Origin: Escherichia phage 2H10
Strand: one strand, 5' to 3'
Length of the DNA stretch: 46,288 nt
Sequence record: NC_049950.1
Position 1 is the stretch's first letter; the number at the start of each line of letters is the position of its first letter. Positions 5,182 to 29,667 of the stretch are shown piece after piece. Below the pieces are notes generated by a model, which did not search any database, had not been told where the DNA came from, and saw only the letters and a list, made by a program, of their open reading frames with translations. Position numbers and translations under genes: made by a program.

Positions 5182-6481
5182 TCTCCCGCATATTGCCAGC
5201 ATGGCTTTTAATGAGCCGCTGATGCTTGAACCCGCCTATGCGCGGGTTTTCTTTTGTGCGCTTGCAGGCCAGCTTGGGATCAGCCGCCTGACGGATGCAG
5301 TATCCGGCGACAGCCTGACTGCCGGAGAGGCACCCGCGGCGCTGGCGTTATCCGGTGATGATGACGGACCACGACAGGCCCGCAGTTATCAGGTCATGAA
5401 CGGCATCGCCGTGCTGCCGGTGTCCGGTACGCTGGTCAGCCGGACGCGGGCGCTGCAGCCGTATTCGGGAATGACCGGTTACAACGGCATTATCGCCCGT
5501 CTGCAACAGGCTGCCAGCGATCCGATGGTGGACGGCATTCTGCTGGATATGGACACACCGGGCGGGATGGTGGCGGGAGCATTTGACTGTGCTGACATCA
5601 TCGCCCGTGTGCGAGACATAAAACCGGTATGGGCGCTGGCCAACGACATGAACTGCAGTGCAGGTCAGCTGCTTGCCAGCGCCGCCTCCCGGCGTCTGGT
5701 CACGCAGACCGCCCGGACAGGCTCCATCGGCGTCATGATGGCTCACAGTAATTACGGTGCTGCGCTGGAGAAACAGGGCGTGGAAATCACGCTGATTTAC
5801 AGCGGCAGCCATAAGGTGGATGGCAACCCCTACAGCCATCTACCGGATGATGTCCGGGAAACACTGCAGTCCCGGATGGATGCAACCCGCCGGATGTTTG
5901 CACAGAAGGTGTCGGCATATACCGGCCTGTCCGTGCAGGCTGTGCTGGATACCGAGGCTGCAGTGTACAGCGGTCAGGAGGCCATTGATGCCGGACTGGC
6001 TGATGAACTTGTTAACAGTACCGATGCGATCACCGTCATGCGTGATGCACTGGATGCACGTAAATCCCGTCTCTCAGGAGGGCGAATGACCAAAGAGACT
6101 CAATCAACAACTGTTTCAGCCACTGCTTCGCAGGCTGACGTTACTGGCGTGGTGCAAGCGACGGAGGGCGAGAACGCCAGCGCTGCGCAGCCGGACGTGA
6201 ACGCGCAGATCACCGCAGCGGTTGCGGCAGAAAACAGTCGCATTATGGGGATCCTCAACTGTGAGGAGGCTCACGGACGCGAAGAACAGGCACGCGTGCT
6301 GGCCGAAACCCCCGGTATGACCGTGGAAACGGCCCGCCGTATTCTGGCTGCAGCACCACAGAGTGCACAGGCGCGCAGTGACACTGCGCTGGATCGTCTG
6401 ATGCAGGGGGCACCGGCACCGCTGGCTGCAGGTAACCCGGCATCTGATGCCGTTAACGATTTGCTGAACACACCAGTGTAA
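5162..6481 (+). CDS. C: head maturation protease / minor capsid protein C
   Basis: Track ORF 5027-6481 contains lambda gpC sequence starting at VTAELRNLPHIASMAF; GTG at 5162 overlaps B 3-prime end as in lambda; upstream in-frame extension judged non-coding. Confidence 0.92.
5876..6481 (+). CDS. nu3: scaffolding protein Nu3 (in-frame internal start within C)
   Basis: ATG at 5876 in the C frame gives MDATRRMFAQKVSAYTGLSVQAV..., the expected 201-codon C-terminal nested product known from lambda. Confidence 0.8.
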   Translation: MDATRRMFAQKVSAYTGLSVQAVLDTEAAVYSGQEAIDAGLADELVNSTDAITVMRDALDARKSRLSGGRMTKETQSTTVSATASQADVTGVVQATEGENASAAQPDVNAQITAAVAAENSRIMGILNCEEAHGREEQARVLAETPGMTVETARRILAAAPQSAQARSDTALDRLMQGAPAPLAAGNPASDAVNDLLNTPV

Positions 6482-6878: not shown

Positions 6879-7904
6879 ATGTCGATGTACACAACCGCCC
6901 AGCTGCTGGCGGCAAATGAGAAGAAATTTAAGTTTGATCCGCTGTTTCTGCGTCTCTTTTTCCGTGAGAGCTATCCCTTCACCACGGAGAAAGTCTATCT
7001 CTCACAAATTCCGGGACTGGTAAACATGGCGCTGTACGTTTCGCCGATTGTTTCCGGTGAGGTTATCCGCTCCCGTGGCGGCTCCACCTCTGAATTTACA
7101 CCGGGATATGTCAAGCCGAAGCATGAGGTGAATCCGCAGATGACCCTGCGTCGCCTGCCGGATGAAGATCCGCAGAATCTGGCGGACCCGGCTTACCGCC
7201 GCCGTCGCATCATCATGCAGAACATGCGAGACGAAGAGCTGGCCATTGCTCAGGTCGAAGAGATGCAGGCAGTTTCTGCCGTGCTTAAGGGCAAATACAC
7301 CATGACCGGTGAAGCCTTCGATCCGGTTGAAGTGGATATGGGCCGCAGTGCGGCGAACAACATCACACAGTCCGGCGGCACGGAGTGGAGCAAGCGTGAC
7401 AAGTCCACGTATGACCCGACCGACGATATCGAAGCCTACGCGCTGAACGCCAGCGGTGTGGTGAATATCATCGTGTTCGATCCGAAAGGCTGGGCGCTGT
7501 TCCGTTCCTTCAAAGCCGTCAGGGAGAAGCTGGATACCCGTCGCGGCTCTCATTCCGAGCTGGAGACAGCGGTAAAAGACCTGGGCGAAGCGGTGTCCTA
7601 TAAGGGGATGTATGGCGATGTGGCGATCGTCGTGTATTCCGGACAGTACGTGGAAAACGACGTCAAAAAGAACTTCCTGCCGGACAACACGATGGTGCTG
7701 GGGAACACTCAGGCACGCGGTCTGCGCACCTATGGCTGCATTCAGGATGCGGACGCACAGCGCGAAGGCATTAACGCCTCTGCCCGCTACCCGAAAAACT
7801 GGGTGACCACCGGCGATCCGGCGCGTGAGTTCACCATGATTCAGTCAGCACCGCTGATGCTGCTGGCTGACCCTGATGCGTTCGTGTCCGTACAACTGGC
7901 GTAA
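6879..7904 (+). CDS. E: major capsid protein E
   Basis: Product MSMYTTAQLLAANEKKFKFDPLFLRLFFRESYPFTTEKVYLSQIPGLVNMALYV... recognised as lambda gpE; ATG at 6879 within track ORF 6852-7904. Confidence 0.97.
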   Translation: MSMYTTAQLLAANEKKFKFDPLFLRLFFRESYPFTTEKVYLSQIPGLVNMALYVSPIVSGEVIRSRGGSTSEFTPGYVKPKHEVNPQMTLRRLPDEDPQNLADPAYRRRRIIMQNMRDEELAIAQVEEMQAVSAVLKGKYTMTGEAFDPVEVDMGRSAANNITQSGGTEWSKRDKSTYDPTDDIEAYALNASGVVNIIVFDPKGWALFRSFKAVREKLDTRRGSHSELETAVKDLGEAVSYKGMYGDVAIVVYSGQYVENDVKKNFLPDNTMVLGNTQARGLRTYGCIQDADAQREGINASARYPKNWVTTGDPAREFTMIQSAPLMLLADPDAFVSVQLA

Positions 7905-7945
7905 TCGTGGCCCTTCGGGGCCATTTTCTCTCTGTGGAGGAGTCC

Positions 7946-8341
7946 ATGACGAAAGATGAACTGATTGCCCGTCTCCGGTCGCTGGGTGAGCAACTGAACC
8001 GTGATGTCAGCCTGACGGGGACGAAAGAAGAACTGGCGCTCCGTGTGGCAGAGCTGGAAGAAGAGCTTGATGACACGGATGACGCTGCCGGTCAGGATAC
8101 CCCTCTCAGACCGGAAAATGCGATGACCGGACATGAAAATGAGGTGGTATCAGCACAGACGGATACCGTGACTGATACGGCTGCTCTGGTCACGGTTGTG
8201 GCACTGGTGACGCTGCATACCGATGCACTTCACGCCACGCGGGATGAACCTGTGGCATTTGTGCTGCCGGGAACGGCGTTTCGTGTCTCTGCCGGTGTGG
8301 CAGCCGAAATGACAGAACGTGGCCTGGCCAGAATGCAATAA
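7946..8341 (+). CDS. FI: DNA packaging protein FI
   Basis: Product MTKDELIARLRSLGEQLNRDVSLTGTKEELALRVAELEEELDD... recognised as lambda FI; GGAGG 6 nt upstream of ATG 7946. Confidence 0.95.
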   Translation: MTKDELIARLRSLGEQLNRDVSLTGTKEELALRVAELEEELDDTDDAAGQDTPLRPENAMTGHENEVVSAQTDTVTDTAALVTVVALVTLHTDALHATRDEPVAFVLPGTAFRVSAGVAAEMTERGLARMQ

Positions 8342-8352
8342 CGGGAGGCGCT

Positions 8353-8706
8353 GTGGCTGATTTTGATAACCTGTTCGATGCTGCCATTGCCCGCGCCGAT
8401 GAAACGATACGCGGGTACATGGGAACGTCAGCCACCATGACATCCGGTGAGCAGTCCGGCGCAGTAATACGTGGTGTTTTTGATGACCCTGAAAATATCA
8501 GCTATGCCGGACAGGGCGTACGCGTTGAAGGCTCCAGCCCGTCCCTGTTTGTCCGGACTGATGATGTGCGGCAACTGCGGCGTGGAGACACGCTGACCAT
8601 CGGTGAGGAAAACTTCTGGATAGACCGGGTTTCGCCGGATGATGGTGGAAGCTGTCATCTCTGGCTTGGGCGGGGCGTACCGCCTGCCGTTAACCGTCGC
8701 CGCTGA
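8353..8706 (+). CDS. FII: head-tail connector protein FII
   Basis: 117-aa product MADFDNLFDAAIARADETIRGYMGTSAT... recognised as lambda FII; GTG start with GGGAGG upstream. Confidence 0.95.
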   Translation: MADFDNLFDAAIARADETIRGYMGTSATMTSGEQSGAVIRGVFDDPENISYAGQGVRVEGSSPSLFVRTDDVRQLRRGDTLTIGEENFWIDRVSPDDGGSCHLWLGRGVPPAVNRRR

Positions 8707-24389: not shown

Positions 24390-24980
24390 TTATATGTCAG
24401 GTGTCTGAAGTTTTGCTTTGGCTCTTAAAATGGTTTGCCGCGAGGTTTTGAATTCCCGGGCAATGGCACTTATACTTACACCTGACTTAATCCGTTCGAA
24501 TACCACCTGTTTCTGTTCTTCATTTAACACAGGTGGTCGACCAAAACGTTTCCCTGCGCCCCGGGCTCTTACTATCCCGGAATGAGTGCGTTCAAGTAAA
24601 AGGTCTCGTTCAAATTCAGCGACTGCTGAAATTACTTGCATCATCATTTTTCCTGTTGGACTGGTCAGGTCAATGCCCCCCAATGCTAAGCAATGCACTC
24701 TGATACCTGTTTCGGTCAGTTGTTCCACTGTTTTCCTGATATCCATTGCATTACAACCAAGGCGATCCAGTTTTGTCACAATCAATTGATCACCACATTT
24801 CAGGCGAGCAAGCAACCGGTTAAAACCAGGACGCTCACTGGTTGCTGCTGAGCCGCTAATGTGTTCTTCGATTATTTGCTGAGGTTTGATTTTAAAACCT
24901 GCACTTTCGATTTCCCGGCGTTGATTTTCGGTGGTCTGATCCAGCGTTGATATCCGACAGTAAGCAAAAATTCGAGACAT
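24390..24980 (-). CDS. pin: serine recombinase, DNA invertase/resolvase family (PinQ/PinR-like of E. coli cryptic prophages)
   Basis: 196-aa product [29 protein letters not shown]... with catalytic Ser in the RIST motif, C-terminal HTH; sits directly after stf-tfa as in Rac/Qin-type prophages. Confidence 0.85.
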
Positions 24981-25359
24981 AGTGAGACTCTATACGAAAT
25001 TGGTGTACATATCATAATGCATATCCAAAAATTATTTCGCTTATTATTGTACATATTTGTATGTATACGTTCGAAAATAAACGAATTCGGATGCAGTCCC
25101 GTAATTTTGGTGTAACCAAAAATCGATTTTTTGAAAAATGGCTTTAACTCGGTTTGTTTTTCGAACTCCGGGCGGACTCGAGGAAGACGAATAATAGTGT
25201 TGTATGTTATTTCAACCAGATTTTAAGTTGTTTGGTCGTGGAAAAGTGGAGCAAAATGTTGTTAAAGTGGAAAAATGGTAAAAAAAGTAGGTTGTTGCGG
25301 AATAACGTAGTTGTTGATATTTTTTTAATGCATTGAAAAATTATTTTTCAGGGGGGGTA

Positions 25360-25593
25360 TTACACTTTACCATTTAAATTTTGGTTGTCTTTAAGAACTG
25401 ATATCGCTGTTTGTAATAATTCTTTGTTATCCAGCCATGACTTTTTCTTTATGTTTCCTTCAATGTAATCAAGCAATGTTCTGGTATTGATAGGTCTTCC
25501 CTGTTTTGCTACTTCCACGACAGCATCTCCCAGGATAATTCTGACTTCAGGAAGCTGCGCAGGGAACCACTTTAGGGTGTCTTTTGATTTCAT
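25360..25593 (-). CDS. YdfK/YnaE-like small cold-shock-induced protein
   Basis: Track ORF 25360-25626; internal ATG 25593 has an AAGGA Shine-Dalgarno 8 nt upstream and gives MKSKDTLKWFPAQLPEVRIILGDAVVEVAKQG..., recognised from E. coli Rac/Qin prophage paralogs. Confidence 0.7.
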   Translation of the reverse strand: MKSKDTLKWFPAQLPEVRIILGDAVVEVAKQGRPINTRTLLDYIEGNIKKKSWLDNKELLQTAISVLKDNQNLNGKV

Positions 25594-26201
25594 GAAGATA
25601 TTCCTTAAAATATTATTGGTTTTCATTGCAATATTGTATGTCTGATTCAGGATATGTTGACTTATACATCTGTTTTGTCCGGGTTATTGGATATGCCAAT
25701 CCCTAATTTTATTAGAGCATGACCAAAAATGCTGAATATGATAAGTAGTGAAGTGATTATCAGTATGCTGTTCATATAGCCTCGAATTAGTATGGTGTTA
25801 TATATAATATAGTTGACAATTTTTATCCTGGGTGTTCTTAAAGTTCGTAGATGAACCCTGTAGTTTCAGGTATACAGGAATGCTTACAGATAGCGGCAAA
25901 AGTCAGGAGGTTAATGGCGCAAACTGAAGGGGGAGCTGCGAACTAACTTAGGTAGAGACTCTACACGGATTCGGTTTAAAAGTATACATAGATAACAATT
26001 TTTATCTGAAGAAGAAAAATATTAAGGTGATATGGTCATATATACTTTAATGCGGAAGAATGAATGTTATGAGAGTGCTGTATCTGAATGGTTGAAAAAC
26101 CGCAGACACGTCGTATGCAAGAACGTGCTGCGGTTAGCTGGTGAACTTCCGATAGTGCGAGTATTGAATGATTTCCAGCCGTTACCGATTTTACGTGTTA
26201 A

Positions 26202-26450
26202 TTAGTGAACAAACCACTCGTCAGCAGACTCCCAGGTATCTTTCAGAGTTTCCTGAACAAAAGTTTTAGCTGAATCTTTATCGGCGGTGCGCGTAACAGA
26301 AAGGCCATCGTTGCTGGTGGCTTTTACGATCACCTCTACATCGTCATAACGCTTACTGATGCGTCGAGTTAATTCTTCCTTTAATGCATCCACAGCACCG
26401 TTTGGCATTTTAGTCATTTTCTCTTTGGCTATGCAGATCTCAATACGCAT
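26202..26450 (-). CDS. dinI: DinI-family protein (SOS-induced RecA modulator homolog)
   Basis: 82-aa product [12 protein letters not shown]...[15 protein letters not shown]...[11 protein letters not shown] closely resembles DinI/MsgA family; two LexA boxes in its promoter. Confidence 0.85.
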
Positions 26451-26465
26451 AAAAATCCCTCTACA

Positions 26466-26515
26466 CTGTGTTTGTATACAGTGTTATTTTTAACTGTATG
26501 AATAAACAGTGTCAA
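26466..26515 (-). promoter_or_regulatory. SOS-regulated promoter of the dinI-like gene with two LexA boxes
   Basis: Minus-strand TTGACA (26510-26515), 17-nt spacer, TAAAAA -10; CTGT-N8-ACAG boxes at 26494-26509 (inside the spacer) and 26466-26481 (between -10 and the ribosome-binding site). Confidence 0.75.
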
Positions 26516-26961
26516 TAGAACAAAGATTGCTGCATGTACAAATGTTCTTTGGCTACAAATACACCTACTGATCATGTTCTGCTATGCTCTGATACCTCCA
26601 AAATGTACAATCAGCGGCATGAATTTTTCTTTGTACATATGATTGTACATAATCAAAGAGACAACAATTATGACAAGCCTTTTGGCCGCAGAGGTAGCGA
26701 AAAGAAGAACCTTTGCAATTATTTCTCACCCCAATAATTAATCCCAAATTAAAGCTCTTTTACTCTTTCAAAATCCTTTCAGTTAATTGAGGTCTAGTTA
26801 TATAACTCATTTAAATACATATGGTTATGTGGCTTCTTTAATTGAAAATTCTTTCATGTAACTTTAAATCGATCAGGTTGCTTTCATCAAAAATCTGTAC
26901 ATATGCTTGTACATAATGTACAAAGCAGCAGAGGTGTTTTGCGATTTGTACAAGGTGAGTA

Positions 26962-28185
26962 ATGGCGCTGTCTGATGCGTGGTTGCGTTCAGTCGTTGGA
27001 AAGGAACGTGATAAGGTTTTGGTTAAATCCGATCGTGATGGTCTGTCTGTCAGAGTATCACCGAAAGGTCGCGTAGTGTTTCAATATCGTTATCAATGGG
27101 CAGGGAAAGGTGAGCGTCTTGATATCGGAACTTACCCGGCAACTGGATTAAAAGAGGCCAGAGAAGAAGTTATCCGTCTCCGTGGTGAACTCGAGTCAAA
27201 CCGTAATCCACGATTGGTCAAGCAGGCTGAAAAACGAAAAGCTACTGAAGCCATGACGGTAGAGTCTGTGATCCGTGCCTGGTATGAAGCATATTGTGTA
27301 AAAAATAAAAAGGGTTCTGAACAGATACTCCGCTCGTTTGAGCTGCACCTGTTCTCTAAAATCGGGAATATCCCTCACGATGCAGCTACATTGCATGATT
27401 GGTTAGAAGTCCTGGAGCCTCTTAGCACTAAGACTCCAGCAATAGCAGACCGATTGCTAATTAACGCAAAGCAGGCCCATGTCTGGGCGTATAAGAGAAA
27501 GCTTATTGAAACTCGCCCGCTGTCGGATATCACGGGTAAAGATATGGATATCCGTAAAGGTCAGAAGAAACGGTTTCTGACACACGATGAAATTAAAATT
27601 CTTTATGCTGCGATCGATGGCTCTAGAATGGTTCCCAAATACCGGGCCTTCATTAAACTATTACTGCATTTTGGTTGCCGTAGTTCGGAGCTAATTACTG
27701 CTAGGGTGGGTGATTTTGATTTCATAAATAAGGTATGGACTGTACCACCTGAACGACATAAGACAGGGGACATAACAGGCGAACCGCTAAAGCGGCCCAT
27801 TATTGAACCGGTTGAAGAGCTTATAAAATACGTTATCTCTATGAACAACGGTTCCGATATGCTTTTTACTAAGGAAGGAAGCAGGGAGCCAGTCGGTAGG
27901 ACATCATTACAGTCGCTGCCTTACAATTTAATGCAGTACGCGTGGCGGCGTTTAGGATATCAATTCCCTCATTGGTCTCTTCATGACTTGAGACGGACAG
28001 CACGAACAAATTTTTCTGATCTTACTGCGCCTCATATCGCAGAAATTATGCTTGGTCATAAGCTGCCAGGGGTATGGCAAGTTTATGATAAGAGCGATTA
28101 TCTAGAAGAACAGCGTAAAGCTTACCTGGCATGGTGGAAGAGGGTTGAATCGATTGTTAATTGTACTATCTCTGATTCAAACTGA
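26962..28185 (+). CDS. int: tyrosine integrase, P4-like family
   Basis: 407-aa product MALSDAWLRSVVGKERDKVLVKSDRDGLSVRVSPKGRVVFQYRYQWAGKGERLDIG... (P4-type arm-binding N-terminus) with C-terminal HxxR...Y catalytic region (HDLRRTARTNF...Y); AAGGTGAG ribosome-binding site. Confidence 0.9.
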   Translation: MALSDAWLRSVVGKERDKVLVKSDRDGLSVRVSPKGRVVFQYRYQWAGKGERLDIGTYPATGLKEAREEVIRLRGELESNRNPRLVKQAEKRKATEAMTVESVIRAWYEAYCVKNKKGSEQILRSFELHLFSKIGNIPHDAATLHDWLEVLEPLSTKTPAIADRLLINAKQAHVWAYKRKLIETRPLSDITGKDMDIRKGQKKRFLTHDEIKILYAAIDGSRMVPKYRAFIKLLLHFGCRSSELITARVGDFDFINKVWTVPPERHKTGDITGEPLKRPIIEPVEELIKYVISMNNGSDMLFTKEGSREPVGRTSLQSLPYNLMQYAWRRLGYQFPHWSLHDLRRTARTNFSDLTAPHIAEIMLGHKLPGVWQVYDKSDYLEEQRKAYLAWWKRVESIVNCTISDSN

Positions 28186-28470
28186 CGGTTTGTATCACCT
28201 GAACATAACCAAATCTCCTAGCACACTTTGAGCGAGATGTGAGCGTTAAGTTTACGCCATTGTGTTGACATAAGAGGGCACGGGTATAGATATCATCACT
28301 ATCCCTATGCCCCTAAATCGCTCCTGCTATTTGATAAATGCAGATGTTTACCACCAAATGTTTTTGATACTATAGGTTGATTCATGATTTACCTAGAAAC
28401 TTAGTTGTAACGAAAACTTCTTAACGGACACTATCTGGATAAAGTTAGTTTTTTATTTAAGAGGGTTAAC

Positions 28471-29190
28471 ATGTCAAAGTTAAAAAATGAACCATTAGTA
28501 AGGGTATCAGAAGAAGACGGAATAGAAATAAGGAAGATCCAATATCCAGATAATACGATAGAAAGAGTTTATAAGCAGAAAGGTGTAATATTACCACGAA
28601 TACCTTTAAAAGGCCGCTTTGTAGAACAATATGTGGCCTTACAGTTGCTGGATAAAGATCTTCGGAATGTTATTGGTTGGGAGAATATAATAAAAAACAT
28701 TTGTAATAACATTAATAGAGAACAACACTTTATTTATCCTGATTTAGAAAAGAATCTAATATTAAAGTCTTTATTTATATCAAAAGTTGTTACTTACGGT
28801 AAGTGTTTTACAGAGGCGAAAGGGCGTCGATTCACATTGCAGAGAAAGCATGTGCCAGAAAAATACAGAGATTTACATGATTCTATTATGAATGTTAGAC
28901 ATAACTTTGCTGCCCATAAAGGTGAATTTGAATATGATCAATGTGGCTTGGTTTTAATATTGCCGGGGACCAAGAAAAAAAGGTGCTATCATATTTTTTC
29001 AGAACTCAATCAAATAAATTATGGTAATAATGAGGAAGATGATGAACGTTTTTTTATGTTATATGATTCACTGCGTAAAGTCATTAAAGAAAAACGAGAT
29101 AAATTAATTGATAAAATATACGCTGAAAAGATTCATACTCAAACAATGGAGTATTGGTTGAGCCGAACAGGAAAAGAAACAGAGATTTAA
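28471..29190 (+). CDS. hypothetical protein, AT-rich orphan cargo gene downstream of int
   Basis: 239-aa ORF with GAGGG ribosome-binding site 5 nt upstream; GC content by eye roughly 30-35 percent versus roughly 50 percent in the phage core; no family recognised from sequence. Confidence 0.7.
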   Translation: MSKLKNEPLVRVSEEDGIEIRKIQYPDNTIERVYKQKGVILPRIPLKGRFVEQYVALQLLDKDLRNVIGWENIIKNICNNINREQHFIYPDLEKNLILKSLFISKVVTYGKCFTEAKGRRFTLQRKHVPEKYRDLHDSIMNVRHNFAAHKGEFEYDQCGLVLILPGTKKKRCYHIFSELNQINYGNNEEDDERFFMLYDSLRKVIKEKRDKLIDKIYAEKIHTQTMEYWLSRTGKETEI

Positions 29191-29472
29191 TTTGTTCAGT
29201 ATATAAAAGCTAATTTTTAAGGAGTAATTTTCAGATGATTAAAGCTGATTACATTGCGATAGGTACTCTACGACTAACTTTTCAACAAGAGTAAGGGGGT
29301 AATCAATTTTATTTGTATCAATGGTATGACATTTCTTGGCGATAATGTTTTGATCTTATCGATTCATGTCATATGGTCATTGGTAACGTCCGCTCTTGTT
29401 AAAGAGTGGACGCTCAGATTTGGTTTGGCATCTAATCATAGATGTGTCAGCTCACATCTAAGCTAATACATA

Positions 29473-29667
29473 TTAATCAATCACTCCCGCAAATCTGTAA
29501 ATCTTGTGTGATGCCCATTTATTTGGGCAGGATTTAATATCAGGATCTGGAAAGTCAGGCCTGTATTTCTGGCCAGTTCTCCTGTTTACGCTGTTCCAGC
29601 GAAGAACTGTCGATACTGAAACACCACAGAAATCGGCGACTTGTTTAGTTGTCATTAAGTTGTTCAT
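29473..29667 (-). CDS. xis: excisionase / AlpA-family HTH DNA-binding protein
   Basis: 64-aa product MNNLMTTKQVADFCGVSVSTVLRWNSVNRRTGQKYRPDFPDP... typical of phage Xis/AlpA winged-helix family; last gene of the leftward early operon. Confidence 0.75.
   Translation of the reverse strand: MNNLMTTKQVADFCGVSVSTVLRWNSVNRRTGQKYRPDFPDPDIKSCPNKWASHKIYRFAGVID

Follow-up and report, generated by a model that had tools for sequence, protein, structure and literature searches.

The 46,288-nucleotide (nt) genome of Escherichia phage 2H10 (NC_049950.1; this whole stretch is referred to as the window) carries an open reading frame (ORF) of 239 amino acids (aa) at 28471..29190 on the + strand (ATG start, stop codon included), which belongs to the protein family PHROG 8440 and is predicted to encode a solo HEPN-like nuclease. 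Conserved residues and a modelled fold likely place this family in the HEPN superfamily, and the gene is best regarded as representing a new family, still without a name, of a familiar kind, namely the HEPN nucleases for abortive infection that prophages and integrons carry. It forms a compact AT-rich module of a single gene that moves horizontally and brings along its own 5′ region and ribosome-binding site. In our estimate, the chances are even that this unnamed family serves as a prophage-encoded defence of the lysogen that acts by abortive infection or growth arrest and is complete in a single gene.

The ORF is a real gene under purifying selection, because its stop-free run of 259 codons exceeded that of all 500 shuffles of the surrounding int–xis slot (mean 76, maximum 159) and because the ratio of nonsynonymous to synonymous substitution rates (dN/dS) was 0.12 and 0.11 against the orthologues from Cronobacter and from an IMG/VR contig (81% and 77% nucleotide identity, respectively). 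The Shine-Dalgarno sequence AAGAGGG (28459..28465, + strand) is located 5–6 nt 5′ of the ATG, in agreement with an earlier reading of this DNA from sequence alone (the sequence-only reading), which had noted a good ribosome-binding site, and its GAGG core is kept in the Cronobacter and IMG/VR orthologues.

The 239-aa protein matched PHROG 8440 (annotated as of unknown function) end to end with an E value of 1.6e-144, and all 115 diverse relatives (115/115) mapped to the same family. A word-indexed search returned 25 relatives, and an exhaustive profile search, which covered 1.84 billion representatives, returned 924 at E ≤ 1e-3, 397 at E ≤ 1e-10, and 64 at E ≤ 1e-30. The family thus comprises at least 924 clusters (50% identity), and the gene is present in 71 of 5426 complete E. 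coli genomes (~1.3%), so that the sequence-only description of an orphan was not upheld. Family members are nearly all single-domain proteins of about 220–260 aa. The E. coli carriers include avian pathogenic (APEC), Shiga toxin-producing (STEC), and human isolates. The gammaproteobacterial hosts are Escherichia, Cronobacter, Leclercia, Enterobacter, Citrobacter, Yersinia, Pantoea, Vibrio, Photobacterium, Psychromonas, and Pseudomonas, with many carriers among the Vibrionaceae, and Achromobacter is the single named host outside this class.

The family has gone unnamed. Members were called "hypothetical protein" or left without a name in the sources (10/10 members looked up), a profile search of an annotated database returned unnamed members only, and Pfam, NCBIfam, and PADLOC contain no model for the family. 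No mention of WP_000040219 or phrog_8440 was found in the literature searched, the DefensePredictor tables contained neither WP_000040219 nor the family peptides, and no experiment on the gene was found in the literature.

Conserved residues and predicted fold of the family

Residue conservation was evaluated in 115 family sequences with 19–54% identity to the query protein. Y109, R119, H136, and R143 were invariant (115/115), and H149 (114/115), D63 (114/115), and K111 (112/115) were nearly so; G151, A148, and G118 were conserved in at least 90% of the sequences. Residue 144 was H in 62, N in 50, and D in 3 sequences, giving the core motif R143-[H/N/D]-x3-A-H149-[S/A/K/G]-G. In the 2H10 protein, the predicted catalytic Rx5H motif reads R-H-N-F-A-A-H (codons 143–149; 28897..28917, + strand) and falls at the C-terminal end of helix α3. 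The sequence-only reading had recognised no motif or family in the protein, a view superseded by the finding of a large family in which the HEPN-type Rx5H motif is invariant.

The AlphaFold2 model of the 239-aa protein was confident, with a mean predicted local distance difference test score (pLDDT) of 86.5 and a predicted template modelling score (pTM) of 0.75. The model comprises a small N-terminal β-sheet (codons 9–46; 28495..28608, + strand; pLDDT about 92–94 over most of it) with strands at 9–15, 18–24, and 30–36 followed by short strands up to 46, and a helical core supported by model and conservation alike (codons 49–221; 28615..29133, + strand). The predicted core helices are α1 (49–79, with D63), α2 (92–111, with Y109 and K111), α3 (130–148, with H136 and R143), and α4 (188–221). 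A conserved loop at 112–129, which includes G118 and R119 and carries K-C-F-T-x-A-x-G-R, connects α2 and α3, and a β-hairpin is inserted at 157–180, after the motif and before α4. The N-terminal β-sheet is a candidate sensor or regulatory module. According to the model, PHROG 8440 has an architecture of its own, consisting of a β-sheet, a HEPN core, and a post-motif hairpin, with no partner gene.

HEPN proteins are characterized by a four-helix core and an Rx4-6H motif in which the residue after Arg is typically N, D, or H; the motif closes helix 3 and extends into the helix 3–4 loop, and inserts between helices 2 and 3 are frequent (PMC3710099). The AlphaFold2 model shows an all-α, up-down four-helix core. 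The family has R143-x5-H149, with R in 115/115 and H in 114/115 sequences, and the polar residue after Arg is H, N, or D in 115/115. In the model, helix 130–148 stops within the motif and H149-K-G opens the following loop, and the conserved loop 112–129 occupies the position of a helix 2–3 insert. Many but not all HEPN families have a second conserved acid in helix 2, often as Ex3[KR] (PMC3710099). No conserved acid was found in helix 92–111 among the 115 sequences; instead, the conserved D63, within E-K-D-L-R, is located in helix 49–79.

Similarity searches agreed with this placement, though weakly. The 239-aa protein itself matched nothing in Pfam, NCBIfam, or PADLOC (0 PADLOC families), and scans of 22 and of 115 relatives gave a recurrent signal from AbiU2 only. 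PF18734 (HEPN_AbiU2) was the sole Pfam family matched by more than two members (5/115; best E 0.0022, sub-threshold), compared with 26 families matched by one member each in NCBIfam at the same threshold. In scans of concatenated chains, HEPN_AbiU2 was matched in 6/7 chains over profile positions ~105–153 of 193, centred on 114–143, and every such match fell on the helix H-D-x5-R-[HN]-x3-A-H-S-G. The consensus sequence also gave a weak match to HEPN_Swt1 (E 0.44) in the same region. The family was not filed as AbiU2 because no member reached the gathering score of 26.8 bits; the 239-aa protein had no match to PF18734 at E ≤ 10. A PADLOC-DB v2.0.0 scan of the 115 members returned scattered single matches only, and searches of the PDB by sequence, whether with the protein alone, with two profiles, or with the consensus core, returned chance matches only.

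Among the checks that the sequence-only reading had proposed were a profile search against defence-system hidden Markov models (HMMs) and a Foldseek search with a predicted structure. The former gave no match for the protein in PADLOC and the latter nothing significant in the PDB or BFVD; the best structural matches were four-helix bundles of a generic type, among them chemoreceptor ligand-binding domains. These matches would suit a helical-bundle accessory factor in which the Arg/His motif is coincidental or non-catalytic, with a role in regulation, in binding or sensing, in anti-defence, or in host fitness (as a moron), as would the finding that no nuclease family scored above threshold in the family scans. 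In addition, prophage-end slots also hold non-defence morons, with ydfK, dinI, and cdtABC found at the opposite prophage end in this type of phage. We nevertheless regard such a factor as unlikely. D63, Y109, K111, R119, H136, R143, and H149 are conserved in at least 97% of the 115 sequences, and this set of seven polar or charged residues suggests an active site and not a binding scaffold. Moreover, the motif fits HEPN in its sequence, its neighbouring residue, and its position in the fold.

AbiU2, of the Lactococcus AbiU abortive-infection system, is the only Pfam family that was repeatedly matched, always at its catalytic helix H-D-x5-R-[HN]-x3-A-H-x-G. Both AbiU2, which has been linked to phage defence (PMC3710099), and PHROG 8440 are small HEPN or HEPN-like proteins. 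However, only ~30–40 of the 193 profile positions align, PHROG 8440 adds the N-terminal β-sheet and the post-motif β-hairpin, and its loci have no Sel1-repeat, restriction-modification, or AbiU1-type neighbour. Identity to the HEPN-MNT toxins (PDB 7ae2/7ae6) and to YutE/DUF86 (1ylm) was 7–10%; PHROG 8440 differs from them in its Rx5H spacing, in being ~90 residues larger, and in its β elements, and no MNT antitoxin gene adjoins the PHROG 8440 gene. Identity to the integron-cassette HEPN protein Vpc_cass2 (PDB 3jrt) was 10%. Two further cassettes have been reported in preprints. Esos of V. cholerae is a small solo HEPN-like integron cassette with demonstrated phage protection (10.1101/2024.07.02.601686), and the HNPBCG_15845 cassette of V. 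mimicus is described as encoding an AbiU2-type HEPN dimer that is active against T4 and T7 and could not be cloned alone (10.64898/2026.03.17.712381). PHROG 8440 signature peptides were absent from the text and supplements of both papers.

Genomic contexts of a solo, mobile gene

The gene is solo in every context, without a conserved partner, as the sequence-only reading had proposed in calling it single-gene cargo. The Enterobacter, Yersinia, and Citrobacter homologues (39–42% identity) are the last gene of P2/186-like prophages, directly 3′ of int, and either overlap the int stop codon by 17–20 nt or trail it by 34 nt. P2 has a minor defence hotspot between integrase and att (PMC13586616), and the P2-like homologues sit in this integrase-to-att position. 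The context was further sampled in 24 loci (23 from IMG/VR and one Yersinia genome). A same-strand integrase was immediately upstream in 18/24, comprising 13 lambdoid loci with a gap of ~289 nt and five P2-like loci with a gap of −7 to +78 nt. As for the remaining six, one contig starts at the gene and five have the gene within ~3.1 kilobases (kb) of the contig end.

Other members were found in further contexts. A 28%-identical homologue with RHNFAAHSG occurs in a 10.9-kb Vibrio filamentous phage (PQ189351.1), where the depositor noted it as "endonuclease". It is followed by a gene for a 368-aa hypothetical protein without a Pfam match (locus L001, 6738–7844), and the two genes form the accessory region of an inovirus-like element with an IS629-type transposase fragment. 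The Photobacterium gene is a genuine integron cassette, flanked by two copies of a ~110-nt attC-type repeat, of which 16–19 copies are present in the 14.7-kb locus. The array of Photobacterium sp. J15 (locus L012, 1–14702) also contains other defence-flavoured cassettes (DUF2971, DUF2726 with a zinc ribbon, FRG, SAD/SRA-HNH, and a methyltransferase), each set apart by attC-type repeats. In V. alginolyticus, the gene adjoins TacAT, CBASS (SMODS/SAVED), and PAAR genes, and in Pseudomonas it is an isolated islet.

No neighbour was found to be shared across the contexts of the family. Each of the three V. alginolyticus loci has a small gene of the AAA_33 type (kinase-like P-loop) 89–140 nt downstream of the homologue and on the same strand (7875–8381 in loci L013 and L015; 7824–8381 in L014); it is probably not a partner, because it was seen in no other context. 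The window was also searched for signs of an antitoxin, and neither tandem repeats, an Rfam match, nor a conserved small ORF was found. With no repeats and no RNA family, a type III antitoxin was ruled out. A candidate tRNA attachment site beside the homologue of locus L036 was rejected since ARAGORN gave it no support.

The Cronobacter copy, which is 85% identical, delimits the mobile unit. It is the last gene of its lambdoid prophage, following the tail spike gene and umuDC at the opposite end. Homology between Cronobacter and the window is confined to 28314–29198, so the mobile unit consists of the ORF with 157 nt upstream and 8 nt downstream. The 157-nt 5′ region (28314..28470, + strand), which moved with the gene into the different Cronobacter slot, is the presumed promoter or leader. 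A scan of the slot for + strand promoters and terminators found neither, with no σ70 consensus in the 5′ region, and therefore no promoter is claimed for the ORF. In Cronobacter sakazakii, a 23-aa fragment with a weak match to DUF4113 (UmuC C-terminal) is located just 3′ of the module (5984–6055 in loci L019 and L020; 5983–6054 in L021). This fragment suggests that the module was inserted at the umuC 3′ end with a short duplication, because it follows the module although an intact umuC lies upstream.

Proposed function and remaining alternatives

As a defence system, the gene would be expressed in the lysogen, in keeping with its co-orientation with int. P2 int belongs to the lysogenic C-int operon, and in the P2-like relatives the gene would be read with the C-int transcript, because its start lies before the end of int or no more than 78 nt past the stop codon. 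Two subunits may pair, with R143 and H149 forming a metal-independent RNase site as in other HEPN enzymes, and D63, Y109, K111, R119, and H136 would line this site. The enzyme would be silent until an infecting phage is sensed, perhaps via the N-terminal β-sheet or the hairpin insert. Once active, it would cut cellular or phage RNA, and growth and phage production would stop.

Several points weaken this reading. Homology to HEPN families did not reach threshold level, and the fold matches do not discriminate; furthermore, we know of no mechanism that keeps a solo toxin silent. A defence function of the 239-aa protein is itself an inference, as no defence HMM matched it and no experiment on it was found.

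An alternative is a HEPN-like toxin that is mainly selfish, for which defence would be secondary. Such a toxin would serve post-segregational killing, the stabilisation of a prophage or cassette, or competition between elements. Its control would fall to a small RNA, a host factor, or self-inhibition that has escaped recognition as the antitoxin. The motif and fold evidence is the same as for defence, and the gene occurs at the edges of integrated elements and in cassette arrays, which are places typical of addiction modules. In Vibrio it adjoins a toxin-antitoxin pair (TacAT), and the failure to clone the comparable HNPBCG_15845 cassette alone would also fit. Yet no partner ORF, tandem repeat, or known RNA adjoins the gene, its neighbours are not conserved across contexts, and a lone toxin is difficult to maintain when no antidote is linked to it; we judge this explanation quite unlikely. 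A nuclease or phosphotransferase with a chemistry or target other than that of classical HEPN RNases (DNA cutting, or a Tyr/Lys/His set) is more improbable than either alternative above: the GenBank note "endonuclease" on the Vibrio filamentous-phage homologue and the conserved Y109, K111, R119, and H136 outside the minimal HEPN site would agree with it, but it is not known what the depositor based that note on, DNase families gave no match, and the sole recurrent similarity was to a HEPN family.

Returning to single-gene HEPN defence, a broader proposal is put forward tentatively, and with less confidence than the defence function itself. PHROG 8440 may be the founding example of a widespread antitoxin-free defence, in which a HEPN-type RNase fused to its own small β-sheet sensor would detect infection and control itself with no partner, moving as a 0.9-kb cassette between slots near att in prophages (lambdoid and P2-like), filamentous phages, and chromosomal integrons. 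The HEPN assignment is plausible and would not greatly surprise a specialist; its value lies in a family that is widespread, overlooked by current tools, and easy to test. If confirmed, it would provide a name and a mechanism for a sizeable "hypothetical" family missed by defence-finding tools. A solo HEPN enzyme without an antitoxin also raises the testable question of what silences the toxin and what triggers it.

The int–xis slot and the phage element

The window is the genome of a lambda-like siphovirus in virion orientation. Escherichia phages Turner, Kati, and PhiR34_1 share 97% identity with it over the structural half. Alignment of lysogens with the window ends at ~26731, beside prfC, and the other side of the prophage abuts yjjG. 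These borders place attP near 26.73 kb and make int and the 239-aa ORF the first two genes inside attL. The tyrosine integrase gene (407 aa; 26962..28185, + strand) has the same orientation as the ORF and ends 285 nt upstream of it. An excisionase-like gene (64 aa; 29473..29667, − strand) forms the right border of the slot and, like the early-left genes, is convergent with the ORF; these neighbours are annotated in lysogen BEN2908 and phage cdtI. The gene order given by the sequence-only reading, downstream of the integrase and convergent with xis and the early-left operon, was thereby confirmed.

The slot was delimited by comparison with sibling phages. PhiR63_1 shares int and xis and has other cargo; its homology with the window is lost at 28216 and regained at 29437, so the variable slot between the conserved int and xis ends spans 28217..29436. 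Sibling phages with 95%-identical int/xis flanks carry different genes in this slot, and the integrase type is present in ~700 of the 5426 complete E. coli genomes, compared with 71 for the 239-aa cargo. Together with the module in the other Cronobacter slot, these observations supported the horizontal acquisition that had been suggested from base composition. The low G+C (GC) content behind that suggestion held for the ORF itself (31.2% vs. 50.3% for the window), although the immediate neighbours are at 42–47% (int 44.6%, early-left 46.7%) and not at the roughly 50% assumed. Of all 720-nt stretches in the window, the ORF has the lowest GC; only 0.7% of these stretches are equally low, and all of them overlap it. 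The unannotated 238-nt slot tail (29199..29436) holds a short ORF with ATG at 29236 preceded by AAGGAG. This tail and the 239-aa ORF occur in an identical set of 71 E. coli genomes, but the tail was not carried into Cronobacter.

In phage cdtI, the slot encodes a 710-aa protein with a weak CHAT domain that is full-length BovA, of the Borvo defence system (PADLOC E 2.3e-241). The gene (orf33; NC_009514.1 28569–30701; locus L047, 4914–7046) lies between int and the excisionase gene and is labelled "hypothetical protein" in the record, where its Borvo identity is unannotated. Borvo is also a single-gene system; BovA, a CHAT-domain protein, is unrelated to the 239-aa protein and shares only its location. 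BovA in cdtI and the P2 hotspot occupied by the P2-like homologues both bear out the earlier view of integrase-proximal slots as sites for defence genes. If the defence function is confirmed, the int–xis gap of this lambdoid group would be a swap site for single-gene defences (Borvo and the 239-aa gene).

At least two further unknown genes occupy the same gap, in Shiga toxin (Stx)-converting and E. coli reference collection (ECOR) phages. The PhiR63_1 cargo encodes an AT-rich 377-aa hypothetical protein (locus L002, 1627–2760), which had no match in Pfam or PADLOC. In 25 or more Stx1a/Stx2c-converting phages, the cargo is a 517-aa ORF on the opposite strand (Stx2c phage LC727876.1; locus L046, 1758–3311, − strand), likewise with no Pfam or PADLOC match, and the phage records that carry it have no gene annotation.

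A second AT-rich accessory cluster (24981–26961, 35.9% GC) is located at the other prophage end, near attP (~26731). The accessory region as a whole (24390–26961) includes a pin-like recombinase gene (24390–24980), the ydfK cold-shock gene (25360–25626), and a DinI-like gene (26202–26450), all on the − strand, as well as a ynaM/ynfT-family gene. In phage cdtI, the equivalent place is occupied by cdtABC.
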